Source: a virus
Lineage: Duplodnaviria; Caudoviricetes
Virus record (IMG/VR): IMGVR_UViG_3300041991_000048
Location: 1 to 55,603 of that record
Reading direction: 5' to 3' (one strand)
Length of the DNA stretch: 55,603 bases
The translations under genes were made by a program, and so were the position numbers. Below the pieces are notes generated by a model, which saw only the letters and a list, made by a program, of their open reading frames with translations, was not told the DNA's origin and did not search any database. Numbering within the stretch: position 1 is the stretch's first letter; every line of letters begins with the position of its first letter. Shown here piece by piece: positions 3,452-55,496 of this stretch.

Positions 3452-3754
3452 ATGGGTCAAGCATTCAGCAACAAGCGACAAGGCGAGACAGTCCGGCTCG
3501 GGTTTGATTTCTCTCCCATTTTGAATGCTGGCGTCACGCTCTTGACTGCCACATGGCGACTGATTGATCCTGAGGATCCTGATGTGGTGATAGCCGGAGT
3601 GTTTCCAGAGGGTCCTGCCATTGATGAGACTTGGGTCCTTCAGCGCTTCATGGGTGGTGACCCAAGCACGTCATATTATCATGAGATCACCGTCACCACC
3701 AGTGATGGACAGACACTCATTGAAACGCCCTCTCAACTCATCACCTGCATCTGA
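3452..3754 (+). CDS. Putative fibre adaptor protein
   Basis: K..GE...GFDF...L...W...G...Y...TVTTSDG.T pattern of small phage fibre-adaptor proteins. Confidence 0.55.
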   Translation: MGQAFSNKRQGETVRLGFDFSPILNAGVTLLTATWRLIDPEDPDVVIAGVFPEGPAIDETWVLQRFMGGDPSTSYYHEITVTTSDGQTLIETPSQLITCI

Positions 3755-4836
3755 TGGAGTCCCGAATGAAGACCAAGCGAAGCGATCGTCAAGTTGCGAT
3801 GGATCGTCAGTCTGCTCGTTCAATCGACGAGCAGGGATTCCTTCATGTTGAGGGCTGCAACATAAGCAAAGCTTGTGTGAGTCCTTATTGGGGCTCTGAG
3901 ATTCCTGATCACAAGGAGTTGGGTCTCGATCCTGACAAGACCTATTACCTGTTCAGAGATCCTGATGAGCTGGAGAAGTCTGCTAGCACCTTCAACAATC
4001 TTCCTCTGATGGACTTCCACGTGGAAGTGTCTGCGGAAGAGTTGGAAGATGAAAAGGTGCGTGGCAAGATTGTTGGCAGCACAGGCACCAATGCAGTATT
4101 CTCTCATCCGTATCTCCAGAACACGCTTGTCATTTGGACTGCTGGTGCAATTCATGGCGTGATGAGCAAGGAGCAGACAGAACTGTCCTGTGCTTATCGT
4201 TATGAGCTTGACATGACTCCTGGTGAGTTTGAAGGAGTCAAGTATGATGCGCGCATGAAGAACATTCGAGGCAATCATGTGGCGCTTGTTGATGAGGGTC
4301 GTGCAGGTCCTGATGTCACAGTGAAGGATCGCAGGTCTGACAAGCTGCGCGTCAAGGTGGACATTGATGGTGTCGCAAAGATGGTGGCAGATGCCTTGCG
4401 TCCGATCCTGTCTGATCTTGAAACGTATCAGATGCCAAAGAAAGAAGCAATTGCGGAACACAAGCGCCTCGTTGGCGTTCTGAAGAGCGACAATCACAAG
4501 GATGATGCGGAAGAGGCTGAATTGAAGTCAATGATGCCTGAGGGATCAATTACGATTGATGCTGAACAAGAACCATCAATTACTGAGGAGGAAGACGATG
4601 AAAACGACACTGTTTCTGTTGAAGGAGAAAATGCCTATGAGAAAGTAAATTTCGCCGACGAAGTAAACAGGAAGTATCCTTTAGATACGCCTGAGCAAGT
4701 GCTCTCAGCCCTAAGAGAATGGGGTGAAATGAAAAACCGAAACGCATACTCAAAGGAGACGCAAACGGACATCACCAGCCGCATCAACTCAGCAGCACAG
4801 CACTTCAAGGTCGGCGACTTCGCCGAGGGCAAGTGA
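3754..4836 (+). CDS. Prohead maturation protease (DUF2213 family) with extra C-terminal domain
   Basis: RSID..GFLHV...NISKA.V.PY.G.EIP, ELS.AYRY, NHVALV..GRAG motifs; C-terminal FAD..NRKYPLDT domain (DUF6582-like). Confidence 0.85.
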   Translation: MESRMKTKRSDRQVAMDRQSARSIDEQGFLHVEGCNISKACVSPYWGSEIPDHKELGLDPDKTYYLFRDPDELEKSASTFNNLPLMDFHVEVSAEELEDEKVRGKIVGSTGTNAVFSHPYLQNTLVIWTAGAIHGVMSKEQTELSCAYRYELDMTPGEFEGVKYDARMKNIRGNHVALVDEGRAGPDVTVKDRRSDKLRVKVDIDGVAKMVADALRPILSDLETYQMPKKEAIAEHKRLVGVLKSDNHKDDAEEAELKSMMPEGSITIDAEQEPSITEEEDDENDTVSVEGENAYEKVNFADEVNRKYPLDTPEQVLSALREWGEMKNRNAYSKETQTDITSRINSAAQHFKVGDFAEGK

Positions 4837-4857
4837 CCCAATCACAAGGAGGCCCAC

Positions 4858-5771
4858 ATGGCCAATAAGATTCGAAAGATCACTACGCAAGGGCACGTCG
4901 TGAAGGGTGCCCTCGCTGCGTATGTCGGACCCAAGCTGGCGGCCGATGGCGCATTCAAGCCAGGAGAGCTCAACGAGGTGCTCAAGAGCATTCCTCCCAA
5001 GCCCTACAGCCTCTCATTGCGGACGCGATTAAGGCCAAGTTTGGTCCTCGCCTCGCAAAGGACCTGGACATCGACGACCTGCCCGACATTCTTGAGGCAC
5101 TCAAGAACTCGGACGATTTCAGCGAGGACGAAAATCCTGATGCTGACGTCGACACTCCTGATGTCAAGAAGAAGGAGGCTCTGCCGATCAAGGACGAGGA
5201 CAAGCCCAAAGAAGACAAGCCCAAAGAAGACAAGCTTGTCTCTGACGAGGAGGAGTCTGTCGCGTCTGATGAAGACGACGCTGGCACCAAACTCATGGCC
5301 ATGCTTGGCAAGTATGAGATTCCTGCAGAGGATCTCGAGCAGATCAATGAACTCATCAACGCTCTGTCTCAGAGCACTGGAGGAGAAATGAAGCCAGCCA
5401 TCGACGAGCTGCCTGAAGAGAAGGACAAGAAGAAGGAGGAGGCTCCCATCACCAAGGCAGCAATGGATCGTGCGCTTGCTGCGCATGATAGCGCCAATCG
5501 TGAACGAGTCAAGGCTCTGTTCACTGCTGCCGCTGACGTCGCTCCCTTCATTGGCCAGGTGGACACTCTCGCCTTCGATTCCGCCAACGACATCTATCGT
5601 CTGGCTCTGGATCATGCTGGCGTCAACATCAAGGGCGTGCATCCCAGTGCATACAAGGCCATGTTGAGCCTTGCGATGCAGCGTCCTGCCGCTCAGCCTG
5701 TCGTCGCCGCTGATGCTGCCTCTCACGAGGACTTCAACAAGCGATACACTCACATTCCGGCTCAGGCATAA
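4858..5771 (+). CDS. Capsid scaffold protein, split by a -1 frameshift near 4990-5015
   Basis: AAGGAGG RBS and ATG at 4858; sensible coding continues in the -1 frame (PLIADAIKAKF, acidic linker, AMD.A..A, DSA..IYR.AL...GV...GVHPSAY), the C-terminal region of DUF2213-type scaffolds. Confidence 0.7.
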
Positions 5772-5781
5772 GGAGGAACCA

Positions 5782-6765
5782 ATGCCCTTTCAGAAGCAGG
5801 TCAACACTTACCAGGCTCCTGCCAACTTGGGCGCCATTGCGTCCATGAATCCCCTGTCCACAGTTGCTGCTGGCCCTGGTGGGCTAGTGGCTGGCGCTGC
5901 TGGCGTCCTCGTCGGTCGTTTCGCGTGGAACACCTACCCTGTCGCGGGAGGCCCTGGCCTTGCGCAGAACATGTGCCCTATCTCCGACACTGAAGCCCCT
6001 CGCGTTCCTGATGGCTTCATCTGCAACCAGCAGCAGGGACTCATCACGCTGTGGCTCGGCAGCGAGAGCCTTGGCGTTCCTCATGGCGTGATGGTCACTG
6101 AGCATGATCGTGGCGACTTCTGGGCCCAGAGCACGATGAGCGAAGCGATCATCGGCAACAAGGTCTTCGCCAATCTCATCACAGGCCAGGCCCTCGCTGC
6201 GGCGGCTGGCTCCACGCCTGCCAGCTACAGTGGCACTCCTGCCGTGATCAAGGGCACAGTGGCGTCGCTCACCAACTTCACCATGACCATCACCGAAGTC
6301 ACCTCTGGTGTCGTCGCTCCTGGTCAGCTCGTTGTTGGCGAAAACATTCCCCAGGGAACCTACATCAGCTCGCTCGGCACTTCTACTGGCGGGACAGGGA
6401 CTGTGTTCCTCACTAGGAATGCCACCAAGCTCTTCACTGCCCAGGACCTGACCACCAGTGTGCCTGAAGCCTATGGCGCCTTCGATGGCACCGCAAGCTT
6501 CGCCACCGACGTCATGACGGTGACTGCTGTTCAGTCGGGTGCTGCCGTTGCGGGTCAGCTCGTCACTTCTGCGAATGTGGCTGCTGGCACCTACATCGTC
6601 GCCCAGCTGACTGGCACTCCTGGTGGTGCTGGCACCTATCAGCTTTCCACTGAGCCTGGCACCATCACCGCTCAGGACGTGAAGGCGACCTCCTGGATCG
6701 AGACGGACTGGTATGTGAAGTCTGCCGGCAACGTCATGGACCTCATCAAAATCGGCCTCAAGTAA
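5782..6765 (+). CDS. Capsid decoration/cement protein with two inserted beta-rich repeats
   Basis: AAGGAGG RBS; MPFQKQVN, LVAG..GV.VGRFAW and ETDW motifs; sits directly before the major capsid gene. Confidence 0.75.
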   Translation: MPFQKQVNTYQAPANLGAIASMNPLSTVAAGPGGLVAGAAGVLVGRFAWNTYPVAGGPGLAQNMCPISDTEAPRVPDGFICNQQQGLITLWLGSESLGVPHGVMVTEHDRGDFWAQSTMSEAIIGNKVFANLITGQALAAAAGSTPASYSGTPAVIKGTVASLTNFTMTITEVTSGVVAPGQLVVGENIPQGTYISSLGTSTGGTGTVFLTRNATKLFTAQDLTTSVPEAYGAFDGTASFATDVMTVTAVQSGAAVAGQLVTSANVAAGTYIVAQLTGTPGGAGTYQLSTEPGTITAQDVKATSWIETDWYVKSAGNVMDLIKIGLK

Positions 6766-6780
6766 TAAGGAGCATACGAC

Positions 6781-7824
6781 ATGCGACAGAATCCCCACAT
6801 GCAGTTGCTGGCCGATCGTTTCGGTATCGTCTTCCCAGGCGCCACCGACTATCGGGACTCCCAGGCCGGACGCCTGGCAGCTGATCGCGTCCTCTCTGAT
6901 GCTGCGCCCACCAATCTGCTTCAGGCAGGCATGGTGACTTCCTACAACGCCAGCGTCCCTGCCTACCTTCTCAACTTCATGGATCCCGAGCTCACGCGTG
7001 TCTTGACTGCGCGCACTGCGGCTGCTGAGATCTTCGGTGAAGCGAAGAAGGGAGACTGGACGACCGACACAGCCACCTTCCCTGTGGTTGAGTCCACGGG
7101 TGAGGTTTCCAGCTATGGCGACCTCAGCAACAATGGCCTGGTTGGTGCCAACACCAACTTCGAGCCTCGTCAGTCCTACCACTACCAGACGTTCACTCGC
7201 TGGGGTGATCGTGAGCTGGAGCGCATGGGCAAGGCGAAGATCGACTGGGCTGCTGAGCAGAACGTCGCCGCTGCGCTCACGTTCGAGAAATTCCAGAACA
7301 AGAGCTACTTCTTCGGCATCAGCGGCCTCGACAACTTCGGCCTGTTGAATGATCCGGTTCTGCCTGCTCCTATCACTCCCACCACTGCGTGGTCTGGCGC
7401 CACTGGCCTCCAGATCTTCGGTGACATCCAGAATCTCTACAAGCAGCTCGCGCTTCAGACTGCTGGCAACATCACCATGAAGGATGAACTCACGCTGGCC
7501 ATGAGTCCCTTCACTGAAGCCTACCTGCTGACTCCGATGCAGAATGTCTATGGCAATGCCACTGTCATTGACCTCATCAAGAAGTCATTCCCCAACCTCA
7601 CCGTCAAGACTGCGGTGGAGTATGCCACTGACTCTGGCAACCTGGTGCAGATGATCGCACCTCGTCTTCAGGGACAGAACACTGGCTTCTGTGCTTTCAC
7701 CGAGAAGATGCGTGCCCACGCCATCGTGCGTGACACCAGCGCCACCTACCAGAAGAAGTCTGGTGGGACCTGGGGTGCCATCGTCAAGGTGCCTGCTGCT
7801 ATTGCCCAGATGCTGGGTGTCTAA
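6781..7824 (+). CDS. Major capsid protein (DUF2184 family, HK97 fold)
   Basis: E.KKGDWTT, GEVSSYGD, RQSYHYQT, NKSYFFG, GLLNDP, FTEKMRAH, GTWGA motifs; strongly biased codons. Confidence 0.9.
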   Translation: MRQNPHMQLLADRFGIVFPGATDYRDSQAGRLAADRVLSDAAPTNLLQAGMVTSYNASVPAYLLNFMDPELTRVLTARTAAAEIFGEAKKGDWTTDTATFPVVESTGEVSSYGDLSNNGLVGANTNFEPRQSYHYQTFTRWGDRELERMGKAKIDWAAEQNVAAALTFEKFQNKSYFFGISGLDNFGLLNDPVLPAPITPTTAWSGATGLQIFGDIQNLYKQLALQTAGNITMKDELTLAMSPFTEAYLLTPMQNVYGNATVIDLIKKSFPNLTVKTAVEYATDSGNLVQMIAPRLQGQNTGFCAFTEKMRAHAIVRDTSATYQKKSGGTWGAIVKVPAAIAQMLGV

Positions 7825-7833
7825 TTCAACTGG

Positions 7834-7870
7834 GGGGTCGTCTCAATCGTGGGACGACCCCGACCTTGTT
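7834..7870 (+). terminator. Stem-loop / probable intrinsic terminator after the major capsid gene
   Basis: GGGGTCGTCTCA-ATCG-TGGGACGACCCC 12-bp stem followed by a weak T tract. Confidence 0.65.
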
Positions 7871-7895
7871 TCAACTCACCACACTGAGGTGCAAA

Positions 7896-8285
7896 ATGGC
7901 TGAGATGGTTCTCGTCGGCTGCAAACTTCCCCACGGACTCAATCTTGATCTTCGTGATGCGCAGGGCAATGTCACTGCTCGCGTAAAACTTCCTGGCAAC
8001 TCTGGGTTCACACTTCCCAATCCTGATCGTCGTTTCAAGAATCCCACCACCTTCTATGGTGATACGTTCACTGAGGTGGAGAAGGACCATTGGGACGCTT
8101 GGCTGAAGAAGCACAAGACCCATCCCGCAGTTCTCAATGGTGCCATCTATGCGGCTAACCAGCAAGAGGACGCGATCGTCCAGGCTCGCAATCACGAAGA
8201 CGAGAATGTCGGCTTCGACAAGATCGACCCCAAGAAGTTTGGCGTGGCCAAGCTTGATGACTCTCCCAAGCCTGCGGGAATCTAG
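7896..8285 (+). CDS. Conserved virion-associated protein (V.CKLPHGL family)
   Basis: VGCKLPHGL motif; found after the capsid gene in Bcep781/PB1-like myoviruses. Confidence 0.7.
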   Translation: MAEMVLVGCKLPHGLNLDLRDAQGNVTARVKLPGNSGFTLPNPDRRFKNPTTFYGDTFTEVEKDHWDAWLKKHKTHPAVLNGAIYAANQQEDAIVQARNHEDENVGFDKIDPKKFGVAKLDDSPKPAGI

Positions 8286-8294
8286 GAGGAGGCT

Positions 8295-8723
8295 ATGGCT
8301 GCTGTTGTGTTTGACAAATGTAAGTTTCTGGATCGCTATCCAGAGTTCGTTCCGACTGTCGCAGCCAATGCCACCTCTGCAGAAAACTGCTTTGAAGAAG
8401 CAACGCTCTTTCTCAACAATACGAGCAGCAGCAGGATTCCGGCTGAGACCAGAGTCCTGCTGCTGAACATGCTTACTGCTCATATCATGGCGATCAATTT
8501 TGGCATCAATGGCCAAGGCGCTAGCGCTCTTGTTGGTCGCATTGCCTCTGCCGGAGAAGGGTCTGTGAATGTTAGCACAGACATGGGTCCTTCAACTTCA
8601 CAGAAGGCTTGGTATGAGCAGACGAAGTATGGCGCGGCCTACTGGCGTGCGTCTATGGCTTATCGTTCTGCTACATACATTGCTCCTGTTGGCCTCAATA
8701 GCTGCTCTCATCGACGAGGTTGA
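8295..8723 (+). CDS. Head-tail adaptor (DUF4054 family)
   Basis: F...YPEF, LL..LTAH, VGRIASA.EGSV.VS, W..QT.YG..YW motifs. Confidence 0.85.
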   Translation: MAAVVFDKCKFLDRYPEFVPTVAANATSAENCFEEATLFLNNTSSSRIPAETRVLLLNMLTAHIMAINFGINGQGASALVGRIASAGEGSVNVSTDMGPSTSQKAWYEQTKYGAAYWRASMAYRSATYIAPVGLNSCSHRRG

Positions 8724-31468: not shown

Positions 31469-31777
31469 TCAGCCCTCCTTCTTGAAATAGATGATGTAGA
31501 TTCGCTTTTCCGTTTCAAGAGCAATGTGTCTGCTGCTTTCATCAATTCCATGATCATTGTTTGCCAGAGCAAGATTGATCAGCTTCATGATGCGTTTCAC
31601 CTGGACATCATTGATGTCCTCTTTGCTCAGATCAGTGCCCGTAGATGTTTTGAACCACTTTGGGTCGGTCGTTGACGGATAACGGTGCGTTCCAGCACCC
31701 CCACAGCAGCAAGCTCTGGCTCTGCCACTGTAAACGCTTGAGATTTCTTCCAAGGCCACTGCGATGCGACGCTTCAT
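31469..31777 (-). CDS. Hypothetical early protein directly downstream of hammerhead 1
   Basis: TAAAGGAG RBS; VYSG...CCCG motif. Confidence 0.7.
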   Translation of the reverse strand: MKRRIAVALEEISSVYSGRARACCCGGAGTHRYPSTTDPKWFKTSTGTDLSKEDINDVQVKRIMKLINLALANNDHGIDESSRHIALETEKRIYIIYFKKEG

Positions 31778-31804
31778 TTCCCTGCTCCTTTACGTGAGCG
31801 ATCT

Positions 31805-31868
31805 GGCTCATCAGCGGCAGGAGATCATTCCAGCCGGACGAGCGCCACCTGCTCGCGCTCGTTTCGCC
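31805..31868 (-). ncRNA. Type II hammerhead ribozyme (HHR1)
   Basis: - strand: GGC GAAAC GAGCGC-loop-GCGCUC GUC^ CGGC.GGA-AUGAUC-UCC.GCCG CUGAUGA GCC; all core nucleotides present; predicted cut between 31837 and 31836. Confidence 0.92.
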
Positions 31869-32038
31869 TATTGAAGATGATGAACGATATCAGTTGGGCA
31901 CTCAATCAAGTGCTGTTCGGTGGTGAGTATCACAAGGCTGCTTTCCTTGACCTCATAAACCCAACCCCAGACTTTCTTACCAGCACCAGCATAACGATCA
32001 GGCACCACCGTTTGGATCATGTCGCTTTCTTTGAACAT
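31868..32038 (-). CDS. 56-aa hypothetical protein whose stop codon abuts HHR1 (not in ORF track)
   Basis: MFKESDMIQTVVPDRYAGAGKKVWGWVYEVKESSLVILTTEQHLIECPTDIVHHLQ; coupled to the upstream stop (TGACATG). Confidence 0.6.
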   Translation of the reverse strand: MFKESDMIQTVVPDRYAGAGKKVWGWVYEVKESSLVILTTEQHLIECPTDIVHHLQ

Positions 32039-32039
32039 G

Positions 32040-32594
32040 TCAGTCAGCGAACGTCAACTCAGCGTCGCCACCGTTGGACTCTTGAATGTGAATTGAGTTG
32101 AAGTAGTCATCAAACGCTTCTTCAACTATGTCTGCCGCAGTCCAGCGCTCTTGAATCATTTCCGTTTCAATGATGACGTAAGGAGTTTGATACTTGGCGC
32201 TCATTCCAAATTTTAGATTGATGCGCTCATTCCTCGGAACGACCATTCTTTCTTTGATCAGCTTGATTGCGCTCTCAGCAGCCTTTGTGTAAACTTTGCG
32301 ATTGAACTTTCGCGACTCAAGGTAGGAGTCAAAACAGAACGTCACATTTTCAACTTCAGTTTCATCCATGATCTTCTTGGCAGCTTCAAGCTTCAGCATG
32401 ATCTCTTCAGGATTAATCAGCACCACGCTGTTTTCTGATTGAGAGTCAGTCAGCTTGACAGCCAAAGCATTTTTGTAGTCTGGGCCAAGGGAGACAACTT
32501 CCCACGAAACAGAATCAAAATCGTAGAAGCCACCAATCACATACGTTTTGTTCATGGGGCTGTCGATGTTGATGGTAGTGATTTTGTTGCTCAT
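32040..32594 (-). CDS. Hypothetical early protein directly downstream of hammerhead 2
   Basis: TAAAGGAG RBS; 184 aa, visibly AT-richer than flanking genes. Confidence 0.7.
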   Translation of the reverse strand: MSNKITTINIDSPMNKTYVIGGFYDFDSVSWEVVSLGPDYKNALAVKLTDSQSENSVVLINPEEIMLKLEAAKKIMDETEVENVTFCFDSYLESRKFNRKVYTKAAESAIKLIKERMVVPRNERINLKFGMSAKYQTPYVIIETEMIQERWTAADIVEEAFDDYFNSIHIQESNGGDAELTFAD

Positions 32595-32621
32595 TTCATT
32601 TCTCCTTTACTTGAGCGACCT

Positions 32622-32688
32622 GGCTCATCAGCAGGATGGAGTCATTCATCCTGGACTGCCCCACAACCTTCGTGGGGACAGTTTCGCC
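32622..32688 (-). ncRNA. Type II hammerhead ribozyme (HHR2)
   Basis: - strand: GGC GAAAC UG.CCCCAC-loop-GUGGGG CA GUC^ CAGGAUG-AAUGACUC-CAUCCUG CUGAUGA GCC; predicted cut between 32654 and 32653. Confidence 0.92.
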
Positions 32689-33056
32689 TTCAGCAGAGGT
32701 TGATCGAGCGTCACAGGCTTCCTGCGTTGGGCTCCAACTCAGAGTCTCATCCTTTTGGTCTCGCAGCAAGCATCACAGTGCTTGATCTCTGCTCCACCAA
32801 CATTCCGTTCCACTGGTTGTTTGATCACCTCCCACTATCAGTCGTCGCCGCCACTAAGTCGACAACTGGAAAACTCACTCGCACACCAGACCACCACGAG
32901 GAGCGTTTCAACTTTTCAAATCACAAGCTCATCATCAGGCTGCTTCATTTCGCACGGAGTGGAAAACTCACACCACCAGCTCAACTTATCACCAGACTTC
33001 CACCAGCTTGCTTCGGGCCACCGACCCCAGGTTCCGTCAGCCTCAACTTTCGGACC
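32689..33056 (-). ncRNA. Putative long structured non-coding leader RNA
   Basis: No - strand ORF in the track; several hairpins and short repeated motifs between the promoter candidate and HHR2. Confidence 0.45.
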
Positions 33057-33060
33057 TGAC

Positions 33061-33093
33061 TTATTATCGCGCCAGTTTCACCAGTTTGGCAGA
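33061..33093 (-). promoter_or_regulatory. Candidate early promoter (-10 GATAAT)
   Basis: CTGCCA-N18-GATAAT with AT-rich upstream region; GCGATAATAA is repeated at 44058-44067. Confidence 0.5.
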
Positions 33094-33228
33094 AAAAATG
33101 ACAATTTAAGTATCAGTAAATAGGCCACTTATATCACAAAAATAAATTTCTGCCATATTGTTTCAGCCCCAGGCCTTTTGCGTAAGTATTGATAATAAAG
33201 GAGCTATAGTCGCACATATTGGGCTTTA

Positions 33229-33261
33229 GGGCCCAGGGTCCAATTTCTGGTCCCTAGGCCC
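33229..33261 (-). terminator. GC-rich hairpin after the dnaE stop
   Basis: GGGCCTAGGGACCA/TGGACCCTGGGCCC stem; no clear U tract. Confidence 0.4.
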
Positions 33262-33293
33262 GAGCTTAGCGCTGGCTCGTGATAGCGAGCAGC

Positions 33294-36167
33294 CTAGCCC
33301 TGCGCAATCTCGGCTGGATCATCAGGCTTCTTCGCATACATTGGGTTGGCGCCGATCCCGCTCAACTTTCTCCAGTTGGTAATTCTCACCTGACGGAAGC
33401 CGGATTTGACTCTGCCTTTGAAAATGAACCAGTCGTTCATGCGACCCTCTTCAATCAATGGCAGGCCCAGCTTCAAGTAGTCGTGTCGGTCCACCATGCA
33501 AGGAATCTGGTCGGTGTCATCCTCTGCGGTGAACAGCACCATGAGTGCCTGGCCTCTGATGATTGAACCATTGCGTTTCTTCACATGGGTTGGGTCGTTG
33601 AGGTCTCGCAGATCCTTCTCTGTGATCTTGGCAATGAAGCAGCAGTCAACTTCATAGTCCTCACACTGGATGTGCTCAACATTCTTCATCCTGGACTTGA
33701 TGGCATACTTCTCTGGGTTGGCCTTGAGATGGCCCCACAGCTCTTCACACTCAAACAAATGGTCGAAGGGAGTGAGTCCATTGGCCAGCTTGTTTGTCTG
33801 AGAAGCAGTCAGCTCTGCGCCATGAGAACGACGCTTGATGATGTCATCTGCCATCTTATCACCGACACCCTTGATGTTGGTGAGGCCTCCGATGAGCACG
33901 CCATCTTGAACAGACCAGTGCTTCTGAGACAGCATGGCATCATATGCTCGGAACTCATAACCCTCCTTGACGAGCTCACGCAGAAGCCTGATGCTCTGTG
34001 TTTCGTCGCGAGCATTGCGCAAGCAGGCTGCACCAAACTCAAGAGGGAATTTCGCCTTCAAGAGCATGCACCAGTAGCTCACCATGGCATAGGCGACTGC
34101 GTGGCTGCGATTGAAACTCCATGAGCCCATCGTGTTGATCTGATTCCAGACGCGCAGCGCATCATCCTCTTCGATGCCTTGCTCGATGGCACCCACGCGG
34201 AAGCGAACCCAATACTGATCGAAGAACTCCTTGCCCAAGCTCTTGGACATAGCCTTGCGCAGAGAGCTGACGTCCTCCCAACTCAGCTTGCCCATCTCAC
34301 GAGCAATCTGCATCACCTGTTCCTGATACACAACCACGCCATAGGTGACTTCTGTGGTGTGAGCGATCATTGGGTGAAGTGGGACCGTTGGATTCTCACC
34401 AGTTCTGCGGCGAATGTATTCTGTCGTGCCACCAGAGTGAAGAGGACCAGGACGAGCCAGAGCTGTCACCGCAGCAATGTCTTCAAAATTCTCGATGAAC
34501 ATCTGACTGATGAGCGACTGAAGCGCATGACCTTCAAACTGGAAGATGCCAGCAAACTTCTTGTCGTTGAGCACCTTGAAGGCAAGCACATCATCAGTTG
34601 GGTAGGCCATGAGCTGCTCTCGCGACCAACCAACTTGATCCAAGCAGTCCTGAAGCACAGACAATGTTCGCAGGCCCAGCGCATCGATCTTCAGCAAATT
34701 TAGCTTCTCAGCATCGTGCTTGTCGATCATGACAGCACCAGTCTGTTCATTGATGGAGCAGAAGTTATGCAGCGGATCAGACGTCACCACGATCCCGGCT
34801 GCATGTTGGCCGAAGCCGGAGGCGTGGCCTTCGATGTCGCCTGCGAGGATCATCTGCGGGAACTTCTTGATGACGTTCTGTCCGACCTCCAATTCATTGA
34901 AGGTGTCAAGGATGCAGAAGCCTGCACGAGAGTCGCCTGTGCTGCGCTCAATGATACTGTTCTTCAGATTGGTGACTTCCCAGATGGGAACGCTCAGTGC
35001 TTTGGCGATTGTGTCGATGGCGCTCTTGGCCTTGTATCGCATGACGGTGCCCAGTCGTGCTACCTGTGGCGCACCATACTTCTGCTTGAGATACTCAAAC
35101 ACCATGTCGCGCCTATCATCAGGGAAGTCGATGTCGATATCAGGAAGGTCGGCACGATTGATGTCGATGAAGCGTTCAAACAGAAGGCCATAGGGGATGG
35201 GATCGATCTCTGTGATGCTCAGAAGATAGCACACGAGAGATCCGCAGGATGAACCACGCGCAGGACCGACCAGCATCTCAGTCTTTGCGTAGCGAACAAG
35301 ATCCCACACCAGATAGAAGTAGTCCTCAAATTTCTTCTCTGCGATCATGTCAAGCTCACGCGTGAGACGATCAGCATACACCTTGTCCTTGAGGTTGACA
35401 TTGCGAGCAGGAGCAAACTCCTCACAGAGTGTGCGTAGAGAAGGAAGCTTGGGATCAGACTTCACCATTGATGCCCGAGGCAGCTCAGCATTGCACATCT
35501 CTGCGATGGCAGTTGTGTTCTTGAGTGCGTCTTCATTTCCTGGCCAGATGATCCTCCACTCATCATCGCTGAGCATGTGCATCGGCGACACACTCATCAT
35601 CTTGTCTCTGCCAGCAACAGCCTCATACACGTCCTTGTCCTGAACACGAGGATAGCGAGGATCAGACACTGCGACAGTTTTCATTCCTCTCGTGCGAGCA
35701 AACTCTGCTGCCTTGATTGGCGACATAGGCCCAAGCTCAACATAGAGGTTGTCACGCTTGGGCAAACTGCCCCACACAGGGTGGGCTCCTGATAGTATGA
35801 TGATCTCATCGCTGACATCAAACAGAAACGCATAGTCGAGTCGTGGAACATAGTAGTGATGCTCTGGTCGAGTGCTGATGCTGATGATCTCATACAGCTC
35901 TTTGAGTCCAGCATTGCTCTTGGCAAGGAAGGCCATCATGTTGATGCCTTGCTTGGTCTTGGACTTCATATCATTGACGACTGCCAGCTCAACGCCAAAG
36001 ATCGGTTTGCGCTTCAGCTTCCTGCAAGCATCATTCCACTCCACGTGACCAAAGGTGTTGGCAGTATCAGTGATGGCAGCAGGACCATTGGTGACTGCTA
36101 GCACCTTGTCGATTGATCCGAATACCTGCCTGAATGAATACTCAGTGCGACAACGAAGCTGAAACAT
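33294..36167 (-). CDS. dnaE: DNA polymerase III alpha subunit (C-family)
   Basis: GP.RGS..GSLV.Y.L.IT.IDP, LFERF, PDIDIDF, HAAG, K.D.LGL, GIFQF, FN.SHA..Y motifs. Confidence 0.95.
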   Translation of the reverse strand: MFQLRCRTEYSFRQVFGSIDKVLAVTNGPAAITDTANTFGHVEWNDACRKLKRKPIFGVELAVVNDMKSKTKQGINMMAFLAKSNAGLKELYEIISISTRPEHHYYVPRLDYAFLFDVSDEIIILSGAHPVWGSLPKRDNLYVELGPMSPIKAAEFARTRGMKTVAVSDPRYPRVQDKDVYEAVAGRDKMMSVSPMHMLSDDEWRIIWPGNEDALKNTTAIAEMCNAELPRASMVKSDPKLPSLRTLCEEFAPARNVNLKDKVYADRLTRELDMIAEKKFEDYFYLVWDLVRYAKTEMLVGPARGSSCGSLVCYLLSITEIDPIPYGLLFERFIDINRADLPDIDIDFPDDRRDMVFEYLKQKYGAPQVARLGTVMRYKAKSAIDTIAKALSVPIWEVTNLKNSIIERSTGDSRAGFCILDTFNELEVGQNVIKKFPQMILAGDIEGHASGFGQHAAGIVVTSDPLHNFCSINEQTGAVMIDKHDAEKLNLLKIDALGLRTLSVLQDCLDQVGWSREQLMAYPTDDVLAFKVLNDKKFAGIFQFEGHALQSLISQMFIENFEDIAAVTALARPGPLHSGGTTEYIRRRTGENPTVPLHPMIAHTTEVTYGVVVYQEQVMQIAREMGKLSWEDVSSLRKAMSKSLGKEFFDQYWVRFRVGAIEQGIEEDDALRVWNQINTMGSWSFNRSHAVAYAMVSYWCMLLKAKFPLEFGAACLRNARDETQSIRLLRELVKEGYEFRAYDAMLSQKHWSVQDGVLIGGLTNIKGVGDKMADDIIKRRSHGAELTASQTNKLANGLTPFDHLFECEELWGHLKANPEKYAIKSRMKNVEHIQCEDYEVDCCFIAKITEKDLRDLNDPTHVKKRNGSIIRGQALMVLFTAEDDTDQIPCMVDRHDYLKLGLPLIEEGRMNDWFIFKGRVKSGFRQVRITNWRKLSGIGANPMYAKKPDDPAEIAQG

Positions 36168-37756: not shown

Positions 37757-38401
37757 TCACTCTGTTTCGATCCATGGATCGCAGTCGTCTATGTCTGCTG
37801 CCAGAGACCTCACCCTGAAATACGCATCAGAACCGATCGCAGCGCCATTGTCCCATATGATGTTCTTGATGGTCTTCAGGCGAAGCTCCAGTCGTTTGAT
37901 CATTTCATTTGCGTGGCGAAGTTCTGCTTCGCATTCAACATCAGAGCAGAAGGACTCTCCTGTCGCACGAAGAACCTCTGGAATGATTGGCTTGGCCATG
38001 TGGGCTGGGATCGGCTCGGTCTCAGGAGTGTAGCTTGGCGGGAATTTTATTCCAAGTTGAGACTCTCGATCCTCTTTTGTCGCCTCTGGCTGTCGTAGAT
38101 CCTGCTCATGATCCAAAGACTCAAGCATGGCTGAATACACCATGCTGTCGTGAGAGCTGTCGATGTGACCTTCGTGGAAGCAGTTGGCATAGCGCGCCAT
38201 CTTGGCAACCACCATGTGGAAGCACGCATAGCGATTCCACTCGTCCGCATTGCTGAGAGTCAACCCACCAGGGAAGAAGCTCATCATGATGTGGCCGAAT
38301 CGCTTGTATGCTTCACCATAGGGAGCACTGCGTTGCTTGAAGGTGTCCTTGCCTCCTTCAAGGATGCTGATCGGATCGATGCCTCGCGTCTGATTGTCCA
38401 T
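37757..38401 (-). CDS. All-alpha NTP-pyrophosphatase-like / nucleotide-modification-associated protein (DUF6378-like N-terminus)
   Basis: R...YG, K..RY, H.DS..D..VY.AML pattern; lies in the nucleotide-metabolism cluster. Confidence 0.6.
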   Translation of the reverse strand: MDNQTRGIDPISILEGGKDTFKQRSAPYGEAYKRFGHIMMSFFPGGLTLSNADEWNRYACFHMVVAKMARYANCFHEGHIDSSHDSMVYSAMLESLDHEQDLRQPEATKEDRESQLGIKFPPSYTPETEPIPAHMAKPIIPEVLRATGESFCSDVECEAELRHANEMIKRLELRLKTIKNIIWDNGAAIGSDAYFRVRSLAADIDDCDPWIETE

Positions 38402-38865
38402 CAATAATCTCCTCGCTGAACTTGAAAACATGTGAGCCCTAGTTTACGCCACATCTCAACCACTCGATCGCGATCATCAAACGCGCCGATGACTTCAAAT
38501 CCGCGTGCCTTGATCTGTTGGAGATAGATCTCTTCCTTGATGATGTGGTCGCTGCGATAGTCTCCGTCAGGTCGCATGAACAGCGCACTGTAGCGAACAT
38601 TGTGCTTGTGAAGCCATTTGGTGGTTGCATCAGACATGGCCTGGAAGCGACCTGTCACCAGGATGACGGGAATGCCTGCTGCGTAGTAAAGATCAACAGC
38701 CTTAGCCACATCAGTCTTCAAAGCGTCGCGATGAGCAGTGCGATTGAATGAGCCCCAGTCCTTCTTGCCGTTCGCATTGTTGACGAAATGGGCACGATGG
38801 GTAATGTCAGCAAGCGTGCCATCAATGTCAACGATGATCGCTTTCATAGAGGATTTGGTTTCCAT
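38401..38865 (-). CDS. HAD-family phosphatase (PNK 3'-phosphatase-like)
   Basis: DIDGTLA, VTGR, MR..GD.R.D..IK, FDDR..VV.MWR motifs; no kinase domain. Confidence 0.85.
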   Translation of the reverse strand: METKSSMKAIIVDIDGTLADITHRAHFVNNANGKKDWGSFNRTAHRDALKTDVAKAVDLYYAAGIPVILVTGRFQAMSDATTKWLHKHNVRYSALFMRPDGDYRSDHIIKEEIYLQQIKARGFEVIGAFDDRDRVVEMWRKLGLTCFQVQRGDY

Positions 38866-40324: not shown

Positions 40325-42013
40325 CTATTTGTTGCGTGAGTAGAGGATGCCATCACACCAGACATGATTGCCATTAGGCCAGCGCATGGCACTCTCCACA
40401 TCAGGGAAAAAGCCGGAGCCATTGAGGTTGGCGCTGGTGTTGCAGAGGCAAGGCACTCCTGTGAGACGATAATATTCTAGCAGAAGCATATAGACATGCC
40501 AGTTCTGCTCACGATTGATCGTCTGGAGTCGCGCAGTGCCATCAATGTGAAGCACTGCAGGAATCATGGTGACCATGTCAGGACGAATGAAATGATCGAA
40601 CAGCATGTAGGGATCAGGCGTCCCAGGATCAAAGAAGGTCGGCGCGAACTCTTCGAGGCAGATAGGTGCCACAGGACGGAAAGGCTCACGCTTCTTCATC
40701 TTGTTGAGCATTTCCTTGTTGTCAGTGATCGTCGCACCGCACAGGATGCTGCGATTGCCAAGCGCACGAGGGCCAACCTCTGCCCTGCCATTCAAGAACA
40801 CGACAGGAGTGCTGGGATTGTCTGCCAGGAATTTGGCAAGATCAAGAAGGATCATTTCTCGCGCAGTCCAGTTTGGATGCTGAGTTAGCAGAGCTTCGGG
40901 ATCCTCTTTGATGATGGGCATGCCGCAGTAAACGCTCCAGTCCAGCTTGGTGAGATTGTCGATCTGCATCGCAGCACAGCACGCGACACCGATGGCACTC
41001 CCAGAGTCATTGGGGAAAGGAGGAACATAGACCGCAGCGAAGTGTCCTGTGTTGCGCAGGGCACTGTTCCACTTAATGTTGAGAGCGCTGCCGCCACTGA
41101 AGCAGAGGTTGGCACCCTTGGGGATGATGGCGATGGCATTGTCAACCAGCATGATCTCAAGCCACTCATGGATGCAACGAAGAACATCAGCATCACTGAG
41201 GCTGGTATACATCGCATCCACCAGCACTTTGACTTCACGCATGAATGCATGCTCCATGATGCCATCCTGGTTGTAGTCAAGAGGATCACGTTCACGAGGG
41301 AAGTTGGCAGGATTGCTGATGCGATGATAGATGCCGAACATGGCATTGATTAGGCTGGAGTTGGGGGTGCCAGCGCCAATGTAGGACATCAGCTTGCCAG
41401 GAACATCATAGCCACCAAAGAGCTTCTTCTCTGCGGTGACTTCCACATCCCAGACTTCAGGCTTCTTGTAGGGTCCATAGTAGTAGCCCATGATGCCATA
41501 GATGACACCATACAGCTCAAACAGGCTGTCCTTGTATGCTGGCTCGTGACTGGCATTGCGCGGATCAAAGTGATGAACACGCGGATTCTGCCCACCGTCC
41601 CACGTGATGATGTAAGCACTCTCACCACGCTCTGCGAAAGGAGACGTCATATAGGTTCCAATGATGTGGCCTGCGATATGAGGATAGCTGACATAGGGTC
41701 CGATGAGTGTATTTTCAAATTTCTTGCCATCCATGAGGACCATGTCGTTGGTGTCGAATTCGTGATAGGAGGCGACATGCATTTCCCCAGCAGGACTGGA
41801 TGCCAAGCAGTGCTTCCATCCATCCACTGCGACAACATCAGGTGTGAAATTGAACTTCTTGCAGATCTCACCGATCGACTCAATGTCAATCAGCTTCGTG
41901 TAGCGAGGATTGTTGTTGAGCTTTTCAATCTCAACACAGAACACCAGCTTGCCATTGCTGATTCCAGCCACAGCAGCATCGTGGGTGATCTTGAGTCCGA
42001 GGATGTTGGTCAT
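40325..42013 (-). CDS. O-carbamoyltransferase (NodU/CmcH/TobZ family)
   Basis: G.K.THD.AVA, H...H, GKLM, GG.ALN, P..ND.G..IG, G.AE.GPRALGNRSIL, K.RE.FRP.AP, H.DGTAR.QT, NTS.N motifs. Confidence 0.92.
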   Translation of the reverse strand: MTNILGLKITHDAAVAGISNGKLVFCVEIEKLNNNPRYTKLIDIESIGEICKKFNFTPDVVAVDGWKHCLASSPAGEMHVASYHEFDTNDMVLMDGKKFENTLIGPYVSYPHIAGHIIGTYMTSPFAERGESAYIITWDGGQNPRVHHFDPRNASHEPAYKDSLFELYGVIYGIMGYYYGPYKKPEVWDVEVTAEKKLFGGYDVPGKLMSYIGAGTPNSSLINAMFGIYHRISNPANFPRERDPLDYNQDGIMEHAFMREVKVLVDAMYTSLSDADVLRCIHEWLEIMLVDNAIAIIPKGANLCFSGGSALNIKWNSALRNTGHFAAVYVPPFPNDSGSAIGVACCAAMQIDNLTKLDWSVYCGMPIIKEDPEALLTQHPNWTAREMILLDLAKFLADNPSTPVVFLNGRAEVGPRALGNRSILCGATITDNKEMLNKMKKREPFRPVAPICLEEFAPTFFDPGTPDPYMLFDHFIRPDMVTMIPAVLHIDGTARLQTINREQNWHVYMLLLEYYRLTGVPCLCNTSANLNGSGFFPDVESAMRWPNGNHVWCDGILYSRNK

Positions 42014-42015
42014 TT

Positions 42016-42531
42016 CTACTCCTTGATGAGTTGAGTGAGAACGCAAAGGTTGCGCTCTGCAACCCCAACGATCAGATTGAAGCCAATGGTGAACTGCCAC
42101 CCTTGATGATTCTTGCTGTAGTAGGAATTCTTGAAGAGGGTCTTCCACGTCTCCTCGCAGAACTGATGCTTGTGGTCGAGATCCTCGATGGCAAGCTGAG
42201 AGCTGTAGTGTGGAACAGTGATGTTCACCACGCCACCAGGACACAACACTCTCTGAAACTCCTTGAGCACTTCAATTGGATTCGCACAATGTTCAAGGAA
42301 ATGATGGCAGTGAATTTCTGCCACAGAGCCTGCAGTGAAGGGCATGTCCTCAGTGTCAGCATCCCACACCACGACATTCGGATCTTCATTGCTGTGGTGG
42401 TCCACAGGGATGGTTCCGATGATTCGAGAGGCGCCACAGCCAACATTCAGGCGCAGACCGCTCTCAGGCGGAATGGCAATCTGGGCGAGGCTTCGCTTCA
42501 GGCCAAAAAAGACCAGTTGATGAAAGTCCAC
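42016..42531 (-). CDS. Class I SAM-dependent methyltransferase
   Basis: LNVGCG motif I, H.LEH, E..RVL.PGG, VPH, D..H. Confidence 0.8.
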   Translation of the reverse strand: MDFHQLVFFGLKRSLAQIAIPPESGLRLNVGCGASRIIGTIPVDHHSNEDPNVVVWDADTEDMPFTAGSVAEIHCHHFLEHCANPIEVLKEFQRVLCPGGVVNITVPHYSSQLAIEDLDHKHQFCEETWKTLFKNSYYSKNHQGWQFTIGFNLIVGVAERNLCVLTQLIKE

Positions 42532-48517: not shown

Positions 48518-48970
48518 TCACATGTCTCCAGTCAATTGGGTCGGCATGGCACGAGCTTTTGCTTCTCGTTTCTGTCTTTCCTTTTGTGCAGCACTCATTT
48601 TCTTTTTCGTTTCCTCTGAGTGCTTGTGCCCAAGACTATTCTTGTTTCCTAGCAAGGATTTTCTCATTCCCATTTTCATTTCCTCTGAATGCTTGTGTCC
48701 GAGATATCCTCTTGTCGGCTTCAGCCTTCCTTTCGAAACAGCATCCAATAAATTTTCAGACGCAGTTCCTGGGAAATGATGATCATCACGAATGCACCTA
48801 GGATTATCACATTTGTGACAAACAAAAATATCACGAGGAAGTTTGCCATGACGAAGTTGATATACGCGACGAGACGTTCCCCATCCATTCTTGCAATGAG
48901 TTATCAAGCACTCACCAACCTTTGTTGCACGAGATTCATAGTCTTCCAAATAAAGTTTTGCAGGCATCAC
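48518..48970 (-). CDS. HNH homing endonuclease with two NUMOD3 motifs
   Basis: VCHKCDNP.C....H...GT..EN..D; GHKHSEE twice. Confidence 0.85.
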   Translation of the reverse strand: MMPAKLYLEDYESRATKVGECLITHCKNGWGTSRRVYQLRHGKLPRDIFVCHKCDNPRCIRDDHHFPGTASENLLDAVSKGRLKPTRGYLGHKHSEEMKMGMRKSLLGNKNSLGHKHSEETKKKMSAAQKERQKREAKARAMPTQLTGDM

Positions 48971-54396: not shown

Positions 54397-54639
54397 CTAC
54401 CTCTTCGCCTTCAGCAGCACATTCTCACTGCGTGGTAGCTCGCTGAGGTTGGACGTGGAGTTGCCCAAGTAGATCGTCAGCACCTGGTCCGCAGGCTCTG
54501 TGTCCTTGAAGGTGGACAGTGTGATGGCCTGGATGCTGAGAGGCTCCTGCGCAGTCTTGACTTCCATCTGCTCGATGATGATGTGTGCTCGCTCGTGAGC
54601 CTTGAGCAGAGCAGAGACGACTTGTGAGTTGCTGATCAT
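54397..54639 (-). CDS. Hypothetical protein
   Basis: AAGGA RBS; ATGA overlap with upstream stop. Confidence 0.6.
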   Translation of the reverse strand: MISNSQVVSALLKAHERAHIIIEQMEVKTAQEPLSIQAITLSTFKDTEPADQVLTIYLGNSTSNLSELPRSENVLLKAKR

Positions 54640-55496
54640 TCCTTTTCTCCTTCCTGGCGCTGCCAGGCCAGTGGATGCTCAACACGAGCGTCCTTGGTTG
54701 ATTGCCTGTGCTGCTCGGCATAGAATTTGTGACGACCAGATTCATCACGCAGGATCAGGTGGTTGACGTTCACACACCCACGCGTGCCGCACTTGGGGAT
54801 GACAAACAAGTGATCATCGATGCTGCCAAGCACGATATTGAAGTTGATGTAGGCTGCGTTGCGATACGCACCCTCCCACTTGAATGTTGGTGGTGGTTCA
54901 CTTGGATCACATCCGAGAATAATGTGACAGCCGGAATGCTTTCCTTCTGTGATCTTCTGGATGCGCTTGCCAAACAGCACAGCATCATCATTCAGCCTGC
55001 ACCAAGGACGCTTAACGAGAGGATCATCTTTCCTCTGACGTTGCTCCTGTGCCTTTTTGTTTGGCACTTGAACCAGACCCATCTGTCGTTCTTTGAGCTG
55101 ACGAGCATTCTGTCGCTTGGCATAGAAGCTACGCATGCCTGCGTAATCCCTTAGGATCAGGTGGTTGACGTTGATGCAGCCTTTGGTTCCGCAGCGAGGG
55201 ATCACATACAGATGTTCATCAATGTCGCCGAGCATGATGTTGAAGCTGATGTAGGCAGCGCTGCGTGGCGCACCTTCCCAGACAAAGACAGGTGGTAAAG
55301 AATCAGGGTCACTTCCAAACACGACATGGCAACCAGCGTGTGGACCTTCTGTCAGCTTCTGGACTCGTTTGCCAAACAGCACAGCATCATCATTCAGCCT
55401 TGGCCACAGATGCTTGGCAAGAGGATCATTCTGCGCACGCTTGTCGTCAGCACGCTTGCCTCGGTAGTTGAGCTTGTATGGCTTGAACTTGGCCAT
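54636..55496 (-). CDS. Tandem-duplicated degenerate HNH-fold protein
   Basis: Two ~134-aa-period repeats, each with GCH and VIP.CGT.GC.NVNHL; DNA repeat period 402 bp. Confidence 0.75.
   Translation of the reverse strand: MAKFKPYKLNYRGKRADDKRAQNDPLAKHLWPRLNDDAVLFGKRVQKLTEGPHAGCHVVFGSDPDSLPPVFVWEGAPRSAAYISFNIMLGDIDEHLYVIPRCGTKGCINVNHLILRDYAGMRSFYAKRQNARQLKERQMGLVQVPNKKAQEQRQRKDDPLVKRPWCRLNDDAVLFGKRIQKITEGKHSGCHIILGCDPSEPPPTFKWEGAYRNAAYINFNIVLGSIDDHLFVIPKCGTRGCVNVNHLILRDESGRHKFYAEQHRQSTKDARVEHPLAWQRQEGEKE

Follow-up and report, generated by a model that had tools for sequence, protein, structure and literature searches.

Paired type II hammerhead ribozymes ahead of accessory genes in the replication arm of an uncultured myovirus-like phage

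The minus strand of IMG/VR virus record IMGVR_UViG_3300041991_000048 (Duplodnaviria; Caudoviricetes), analysed here over its full 55,603 bp and referred to below as the window, carries two RNA elements, hammerhead A (HH-A; 31797..31869) and hammerhead B (HH-B; 32619..32689), that are almost certainly true hammerhead ribozymes of the type II family RF02276. Our preferred reading, to which we give a probability of roughly 60%, is that both are functional ribozymes of the phage type which stand directly ahead of genes in the replication/accessory block and provide them with uniform, insulated leaders that begin with a 5'-hydroxyl (5'-OH). By analogy with studied relatives, cleavage in vivo is very likely; that selection has kept them for insulating or stabilising the 5' end of the mRNA is an even call.

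On the minus strand both copies read AGGCGAAAC-(stem III hairpin)-GUC^C-(stem I hairpin)-CUGAUGA-GCC, and the canonical core GGC-GAAAC...GUC^C...CUGAUGA-GCC is present without deviation in each, including CUGAUGA, GAAA, the A15.1-U16.1 and G10.1-C11.1 pairs and H17 at the cut site. In HH-A the GGC of the stem II 5' strand occupies 31868-31866, GAAA 31865-31862, the stem III hairpin continues to U 31838 and C17 is 31837; on the 3' side of the cut lie the stem I hairpin (31836-31815), CUGAUGA (31814-31808) and the GCC of the stem II 3' strand (31807-31805). The same parts of HH-B are GGC at 32688-32686, GAAA at 32685-32682, C17 at 32654, stem I at 32653-32632, CUGAUGA at 32631-32625 and GCC at 32624-32622. 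Both copies align full length, to RF02276 positions 1-66, with stems I and III closed by loops and stem II open to the flanks, which is the type II topology. Stem II comprises only 3 base pairs (bp) in either copy.

An earlier note on this DNA, made from its letters, had placed two type II hammerheads, both complete and both on the strand of the genes, at these positions and had proposed a covariance-model search. Searched with the RF02276 model, HH-A scores 42.0 bits, above the gathering score of 37, while HH-B, at 34.2 bits (E 1.4e-4 over 2.5 kb, 7.6e-7 per genome), stays just below it. Our own model, R1, gives 90.1 bits for HH-A and 83.1 bits for HH-B, and with filters off it detects nothing else in the window, the next-best match reaching 13.3 bits (E 0.36). 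The core pattern matches exactly two sites in the window where 0.09 are expected, and two or more matches arise in 1 of 100 shuffles. Likewise, the 17-nucleotide (nt) tail UCGCUCAMGUAAAGGAG is found at two sites in the window, those after HH-A and HH-B, a count that none of 100 shuffles reaches. The Rfam and R1 scores, the unique core-pattern and tail matches and the shuffle controls confirm the observation.

Sequence relatives were collected from IMG/VR with a pattern that fixes the core, the GGC/GCC stem II and the first AG of the tail; it matched at least 118 stretches. Removal of duplicates left a placement set of 137 copies at 105 loci, among the matches listed, and we call its members listed copies, whichever subset is counted.

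The core is shared by HH-A and HH-B, and their stems I and III differ in sequence with the pairing kept, as the earlier note had seen. A further helix joins the stem I loop to the tail. In HH-A, AGAUCG (31799..31804, minus strand) pairs with the loop UGAUCU (31827-31822) through 6 pairs, one of them U-G; in HH-B, AGGUCG (32616..32621, minus strand) pairs with the loop UGACU (32644-32640) through 5 pairs. This pseudoknot covaries between the two copies, with a U-A pair in HH-A replaced by C-G in HH-B, the A/G change in the tail being matched by a U/C change in the loop. A pseudoknot between loop I and the 3' tail is reported for most type II hammerheads and is needed for fast cleavage (PMC3088659). 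It also qualifies a statement of the earlier note, that each ribozyme is followed by a near-identical sequence leading into the ribosome-binding site (RBS): the tail is indeed unique to the two sites, and most of it is ribozyme, AGRUCG being the pseudoknot strand.

The same pairings are retained across the family. When 150 copies (124 distinct rows) are aligned under guidance of the model, pairing is seen in 92.5% of cells overall compared with 67.7% in shuffles, and 0 of 500 shuffles reach the observed covariation score. Stem III is paired in 98.9% of cells with two-sided changes at 7 of 8 pairs, stem I in 97.0% with such changes at 7 of 7 pairs and stem II in 99.7% with such changes at 1 of 3 pairs, figures that rest on an alignment fitted to these stems. 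The pseudoknot, which lies outside the model, is paired in 71.1% of cells and has two-sided changes at 3 of 6 pairs. Among 136 listed copies, the best loop-tail helix averages 4.5 bp, compared with 3.6 bp for shuffled tails and 3.7 bp for swapped tails, and helices of at least 5 bp are found in 50% of copies as opposed to 25% of controls.

The predicted cuts fall at 31837|31836 in HH-A and 32654|32653 in HH-B, 817 nt apart. Each cut lies 59 nt before an ATG (31836 to 31777; 32653 to 32594), a spacing that the earlier note had given and that we confirm, and 26 nt separate stem II from the ATG in both window copies. The same Shine-Dalgarno (SD) sequence, AAGGAG, stands 7 nt before each start codon on the minus strand, at 31785..31790 for the open reading frame (ORF) ORF102 (ATG 31777) and at 32602..32607 for ORF184 (ATG 32594).

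The genes concerned lie downstream of a DnaE-type DNA polymerase III alpha gene (33294..36167, minus strand), the upstream neighbour and our anchor for synteny. Past the DnaE stop (33294) the order is a spacer of about 600 nt, HH-B, ORF184 (32040..32594, minus strand), ORF56 (31868..32038, minus strand), HH-A, ORF102 (31469..31777, minus strand), ORF131, a DUF2786/DUF7168 protein, a DUF932 protein and a helicase. ORF184, the first gene 3' of HH-B, encodes a product without assigned function; ORF56, likewise without one, starts 1 nt past the ORF184 stop, and its own TAG stop overlaps the start of HH-A, the last base of TAG being the first G of HH-A stem II. This gene order indicates that the ribozymes serve small genes without assigned function in the replication/accessory block, and the description of these genes in the earlier note as early, or earliest, is unsupported.

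The arrangement of a ribozyme followed by an RBS is a family-wide property. An SD sequence, a start codon and an ORF follow within 45 nt of the ribozyme 3' end in 107 of 133 listed copies that have at least 200 nt downstream, compared with 466 of 2660 random positions on the same strand (17.5%). On the other side, 79 of 137 listed copies start within 10 nt of the end of an upstream frame open for at least 60 codons (201 of 2740 random positions, 7.3%), and the median gap between the upstream stop and the ribozyme is 4 nt in this set. The distance from cut to start codon has a median of 57 nt (interquartile range 54-61, n=120 listed copies), so the 59 nt seen twice in the window are typical of the family and not special. 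Applied to 100 sources with about 1 Mb in total, R1 yields 259 matches (E at most 1e-3), and some of these sources contain dense arrays. Contig L140 has 10 copies in about 5 kb (3600-8565), spaced 290-890 nt apart and thus roughly one per small gene; 8 copies are found in each of L125 and L132, and several contigs have 7-8 (L125, L132, L183, L178, L161). The reusable ribozyme-RBS cassette postulated in the earlier note is borne out by this layout and by its three copies in the closest relative of the phage (discussed below).

Hammerhead cleavage leaves a 5'-OH on the downstream piece and a 2',3'-cyclic phosphate on the upstream piece. On the preferred reading, stems III and I would form during transcription, the 3-bp stem II would close and the first six bases of the tail would pair with the stem I loop, locking the active shape; the sequences and their covariation show this fold with its pseudoknot. 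The RNA would then cut itself after GUC, 59 nt before the ATG, as we infer from relatives in the same family that have been shown to cleave. The upstream fragment would have the stem III hairpin at its 3' end, terminated by a 2',3'-cyclic phosphate, and the downstream mRNA would begin with a 5'-OH flush with the stem I hairpin; next would probably come a short hairpin of UGAGC with GCUCA and then an accessible AAGGAG. In this way ORF184 and ORF102 would probably each receive a uniform, structured 5'-OH leader independent of the sequence upstream. HH-B would remove read-through from DnaE, or a leader of about 375 nt from a promoter-like element at 33092..33063, and HH-A would separate ORF102 and the genes following it from ORF184-ORF56. 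Stability and translation of the downstream genes would be uncoupled from DnaE or the long leader at copy B and from ORF184-ORF56 at copy A.

Several observations weigh against this reading. HH-B misses the curated Rfam threshold (34.2 compared with 37 bits) despite its intact core, and stem I of HH-A carries one U-U mismatch. The predicted folds of the 3' products are not convincingly better than those of shuffled sequences: the minimum-energy fold of the copy B product does form the UGAGC/GCUCA hairpin and leaves the RBS unpaired (-15.5 kcal/mol), with a z-score of -1.48 that is not significant, and in the copy A product GCUC pairs with part of the SD region instead of UGAGC (z -0.41). The stabilising effect proposed for the leader draws on E. 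coli biology, in which a 5'-OH combined with a terminal hairpin slows 5'-end-dependent decay by RNase E. Finally, hammerheads are patchy among phages with a related DnaE. A search with RF02276 (E 0.01 or better) over whole records, with the whole records of L054-L085 outside its scope, gave a match in 4 of 48 DnaE-relative records, and R1, applied to 80 DnaE loci with 6 kb of flank on either side, gave a match in 2 (L007 and L060), so that other phages of this kind evidently do without hammerheads. When the uncut RNAs were folded as single strands, the hammerhead fold was not recovered for copy A; this carries no information, since neither pseudoknots nor tertiary contacts are considered in such folding.

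The idea of processing and stabilisation is not new, having been put forward in Perreault et al. 2011 and in a 2019 review (PMC3088659, PMC6765202). Perreault et al. 2011 (PLoS Comput Biol) reported natural type II hammerheads, their pseudoknot and clusters that flank varying prophage genes, and proposed that long phage transcripts are processed into operon- or gene-length mRNAs (PMC3088659). They also showed that hammerheads clustered in tandem in phages cut themselves both in vitro and in E. coli cells (PMC3088659), and three type II copies near phage-like genes cleave in vivo in D. vulgaris (PMC8782182). The 2019 review presents "different stabilities or translation efficiencies" as a hypothesis, stated to be untested, and adds that "additional work is needed" (PMC6765202). 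A 2026 paper on RNA viruses sets the hammerheads of DNA phages aside as already described, with roles that "remain elusive" (PMC13725137).

The window matches the clusters of Perreault et al. 2011 in topology, core, loop I pseudoknot, same-strand copies that flank single genes or short blocks, varying cargo and the role proposed, cutting of long transcripts into mRNAs of gene length (PMC3088659). Its two cuts bracket ORF184 and ORF56 on the strand of the genes in a phage genome, as in the layout known for clustered phage hammerheads. Compared with that description (PMC3088659) we see no categorical difference; the window copies come from an uncultured 55.6 kb phage and lie beside DnaE. The HHphage ribozyme of haloviruses HF1 and HF2 is similar in standing before the start codon of a helicase gene at the head of a polycistronic transcript, and the mapped 5' end is within 3 nt of its cut; unlike the window copies, it is a core variant that needs high Mg2+, lies 13 nt from the start codon and belongs to an archaeal virus (PMC3088659). 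RNA-virus hammerheads share with the window the placement of self-cleaving ribozymes right before viral ORFs, with a link to translation of the downstream ORF, and one of them fills a 66-nt intergenic spacer and lies 7 nt before the start codon; in contrast to the window copies they are type I, from eukaryotic RNA viruses, and are associated with cap-independent translation (PMC13725137).

A stabilising and insulating role like that of RiboJ is plausible by analogy. In E. coli, RiboJ, a hammerhead plus a hairpin placed before the RBS, roughly doubles the amount of transcript (about 2-fold) and increases that of protein 2- to 10-fold, and its authors suggest that the terminal hairpin stabilises the mRNA (PMC6206723). 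On paper the two are alike in that upstream sequence is removed, a hairpin-bearing remnant is kept and an exposed RBS follows. RiboJ differs in having been engineered from the hammerhead of the sTRSV plant satellite RNA, which has another topology, and in its designed 23-nt hairpin (PMC6206723). The remnant predicted in the window would comprise the stem I hairpin and, at most, one further hairpin of 5 bp in which bases of the core are used again. Its layout is RiboJ-like, with the ribozyme directly before the RBS; the predicted fold frees the RBS in copy B and partly pairs the SD region in copy A, with z-scores that are not significant.

A specialist would be unsurprised by the elements themselves, and it is the locus together with the family regularities that makes a long-standing question, the role of thousands of bacterial and phage hammerheads (PMC6765202, PMC13725137), directly testable. 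The phage is a clean and compact test case, with two canonical copies at identical spacing to identical SD sequences. A long leader precedes one copy, a stop codon directly adjoins the other, and a close relative has three copies with different cargo. The regularities of the family, which are the abutting stop, the distance of about 57 nt from cut to start, the optional GCUC box tracking stem II and the arrays of up to 10 copies, allow "mRNA processing" to be tested with specific mutants. If it is true that the leader stabilises or insulates mRNAs, these elements would amount to a natural parts library for synthetic biology. In the literature that we covered, from which figures, supplements and subscription journals were outside, we found neither a quantified wedge of stop, ribozyme and RBS nor the GCUC box or arrays of about 10 copies, and so claim no priority; within the same limits, we found no paper that pairs "type II hammerhead" with "Shine-Dalgarno".

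Each tail contains a GCUCA box on the minus strand (copy A, 31795..31799; copy B, 32612..32616) that is complementary to UGAGC, comprising U7-G8-A9-G10.1-C10.2 of the ribozyme (31810-31806 and 32627-32623, respectively). As judged from complementarity, UGAGC/GCUCA is a candidate alternative hairpin that would be mutually exclusive with the active fold and the pseudoknot. GCUC is found at tail offset 5-6 in 51 of 136 listed copies, compared with 10 of 135 in a control window. Of the 66 different tail starts in this set, 7 are combined with GCUC, and the base after GCUC is A or G in 47 of the 51. The relation of the box to position 10.2 was followed in 269 copies from an unbiased pattern search. 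Where position 10.2 is C, 62 of 66 boxes are GCUC and 177 of 243 copies have no box; where it is G, all five boxes are CCUC, every one from the single contig L125, and six copies have no box; where it is U or A, a box is present in none of 15 copies. In the 150-row alignment, which is biased towards copies with a box, the GCUC/GAGC helix is paired in 84.4% of cells, compared with 6-34% when the box is slid and 82.2% in shuffles, which nearly match it because catalysis leaves the 5' strand no freedom to vary. We take the GCUC/GAGC helix to belong to a sub-class of these ribozymes and rate its support as moderate.

A scan of genomes with a 20-nt 3' element returned 7 matches in 7 very different bacteria, which we rejected both as evidence that the tail is universal and as a hint to the host. 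The 5' half of a hammerhead accompanies none of them, several resemble ordinary coding sequence, and we estimate that about 4 would be expected by chance in 596 Gb.

A more elaborate version of the preferred reading, which we consider possible and rather doubtful, would give the tail three jobs. Its first six bases would lock the active fold through the pseudoknot. After the cut, GCUCA would capture U7-G8-A9-G10.1-C10.2, so that the core is dismantled, the cut becomes irreversible and the upstream fragment is released. What remains would be a 5'-OH leader with two hairpins at a fixed distance, with the box about 17 nt from the start codon and a strong SD. Such a unit might act as a portable adaptor for slots of swappable accessory genes, used in some genomes at almost every gene boundary.

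The variability of the genes beside the ribozymes is best seen among relatives of the phage. The four DnaE-relative records matched by RF02276 are those of L007, L009, L039 and L037. The closest, L007, is a complete genome whose DnaE is 76% identical to that of the window and which has three hammerheads downstream of DnaE. The more distant L009 has one downstream of DnaE, as does L039 (L090 1501-1563, from the record of L039), where a match of 30.2 bits contains the core insertion CUGACGAUGA, which reflects either natural variation of the core or decay of the copy; L037 has one elsewhere in its genome, away from DnaE. The copies of L007, L009 and L039 lie 0.6-1 kb downstream of DnaE, the same as in the window. 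Beyond DnaE, the window and L007 are syntenic for ORF102 and the 113-aa gene that follows the last L007 hammerhead (44% identity), for the DUF2786 protein (59%) and for the DUF932 protein (77%); no counterpart of ORF131 was found in L007. Between the first and the last hammerhead there is no similarity at E 1e-4, with ORF184 and ORF56 in the window and, in L007, genes of 78 aa and 264 aa that have a hammerhead between them; L007 has no counterpart of ORF184. Syntenic flanks and dissimilar genes between hammerheads indicate that the ribozymes bound a slot for variable cargo, and the survey of relatives proposed in the earlier note finds the cassette ahead of different cargo in L007 and the same layout across viral contigs.

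Two further observations concern the ends of such slots. In L007, the genes after hammerheads 2 and 3 (starts 9915 and 10822; 264 aa and 113 aa) have in common the stretch from SD to start and the first 14 coding bases, and the cassette may have been duplicated or recombined along with a gene start. In addition, short contigs from other metagenomes (runs X2, X5, X11) match the window over only about 20-50 nt within 32591..32643, where the ribozyme's 3' portion is followed by its tail and the RBS, and several of them then diverge from it, either as if the cassette stood beside other genes in other phages or as assembly breaks at a repeat. No run that contains this stretch is recorded as RNA; of four runs compared with the window three bear the label RNA-Seq, yet all four consist of contigs, probably of DNA, for which starts, ends and joints are not reported and which carry no information on expression.

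These patterns raise the possibility that the cassettes are primarily portable boundaries of gene slots, short identical sequences by which accessory genes are swapped through recombination, with cleavage being secondary or serving whichever gene is resident. The dissimilar cargo between syntenic flanks, the 14 identical bases in L007 and the metagenome contigs that stop matching beyond the cassette all fit such a role, as does the description of genes flanked by hammerheads as "not constant" (PMC3088659). We nevertheless think it unlikely. Recombination needs identity only, which leaves unexplained both the intact core and the paired substitutions that preserve stem I, stem III and the pseudoknot, and those substitutions reduce the likeness of the copies; the exact common stretch is only about 20-30 nt long. 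The contigs themselves possibly reflect assembly breaks at the repeat.

Cutting might alternatively be conditional, with the GCUCA box and the ribosomes that end on the abutting stop competing with the active fold. The fraction cut would then be set by translation or folding kinetics, and with it the balance between expression of the upstream and the downstream gene. The fixed offset of GCUC in 51 of the 136 listed copies, the tail base that tracks stem II position 10.2 and the A or G after GCUC, which would be able to pair with U7, are in line with such competition. So too is the upstream stop within 10 nt of the ribozyme, with that of copy A overlapping stem II, and regulated cleavage has been suggested for phage hammerheads (PMC3088659). 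Set against this, about three quarters of the copies with C at position 10.2 have no box, the covariation of the box stems from a single contig, and pairing of a helix with one side fixed by catalysis is little informative (84.4% compared with 82.2%). Moreover, the ribozyme is transcribed in full before the box emerges, which favours cutting first, and we judge conditional cutting to be improbable.

It is very improbable that the 817-nt segment 32653..31837, containing ORF184 and ORF56, is excised and its ends joined by a host ligase for 2',3'-cyclic-phosphate and 5'-OH ends, or by reversal of the ribozyme, to give an RNA that is circular or spliced. By established chemistry, the ends produced by two cuts would be precisely those on which such ligases act, and the common core and GGC/GCC stem II could allow a hybrid ribozyme to re-form at the junction. 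The possibility was raised by Perreault et al. 2011, who state that spliced or circular products of clustered hammerheads were sought and none found ("data not shown"; PMC3088659). With the strict pattern, 83 of 105 listed loci have a single copy per contig, and no sequence feature points to circles. That HH-A and HH-B are inactive relics or chance look-alikes is hardly credible: the low RF02276 score of HH-B and the mismatch in HH-A would fit decay, but every core position is canonical in both copies, the core-pattern and tail shuffles make a chance pair improbable, and compensatory changes keep the stems and the pseudoknot both between the window copies and across the family.

As for the genome as a whole, CheckV completeness is 100 and G+C content 51.6%, and the window, which is the whole virus record, is a complete myovirus-like phage. 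Genes for tail fibre, head protease, tail sheath, tape measure and baseplate occupy the plus strand over about 0-24.5 kb, and the minus strand from 24.7 to about 51 kb encodes primase, helicases, thymidylate synthase, carbamoyltransferase, a polymerase exonuclease subunit and the DnaE-type polymerase of 957 aa. Neither tRNA nor tmRNA genes were found in the window. Pfam and PHROGs searches with ORF184, ORF56 and ORF102 returned only a weak match of ORF102 to phrog_24766, protein atlas searches with ORF184 and ORF102 gave no usable family, and none of 17 pattern matches for ORF184 relatives in viral contigs was confirmed.

A neighbouring gene at 38431..37757 matched phrog_4889 (E 2.3e-13), labelled polynucleotide kinase, an activity that would have borne on 5'-OH ends. 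We dropped this label, as no Pfam family was matched, the translation shows neither a P-loop nor a HAD motif, and no relative of solved structure falls below E 0.05. Among the replication genes is also a 639-aa Nol-like carbamoyltransferase (40325-42244, minus strand; phrog_1601, E 3.8e-70), an auxiliary gene of unclear role, and two genes on the minus strand of the replication arm (48518-48970 and 54636-55496) resemble homing endonucleases of the HNH/NUMOD3 type.

The non-coding spacer between the DnaE stop and HH-B (32690..33293, minus strand) has no ORF of at least 30 aa on that strand and no Rfam match. It contains a promoter-like CTGCCA-18-GATAAT (33092..33063, minus strand), which is a consensus match only and is partly conserved in L007. 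Blocks conserved with L007 comprise this element, as CCAAA..TGG...GATAAT, together with AGTTGAGGCTGA, TGTGATTTGAAAA and, right before the ribozyme, GACGCAGGAAGCCTG. Judging from these sequence features, it is possible that the spacer is a putative promoter plus a leader of about 375 nt that HH-B would cut off, or that a small RNA is released by the cut. Two other RNA candidates in the region were rejected, namely a possible further hammerhead of degenerate sequence within the spacer (CUGAUGAUGAGC...GAAAC near 32940..32905), which would have been the third and which R1 does not match with filters off, and a "freshwater-2 RNA" over 32677..32592, for which the 26.3 bits, compared with a gathering score of 49.9, are driven by the RBS region.

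The octamer GCTGGTGG, which we take to be the E. coli Chi sequence, occurs at 11 sites in the window compared with 2.68 expected, a number reached in 0 of 100 shuffles. Seven sites are on the plus strand (836, 1751, 3230, 15655, 20260, 21819 and 21897) and four on the minus strand (30271, 32973, 33000 and 41218); all seven in the left arm are thus plus and all four in the 30-41 kb region minus, each co-oriented with the local genes. Two of them lie 20 nt apart inside the spacer upstream of HH-B. The excess may be a hint of a host with a Chi-recognising RecBCD.

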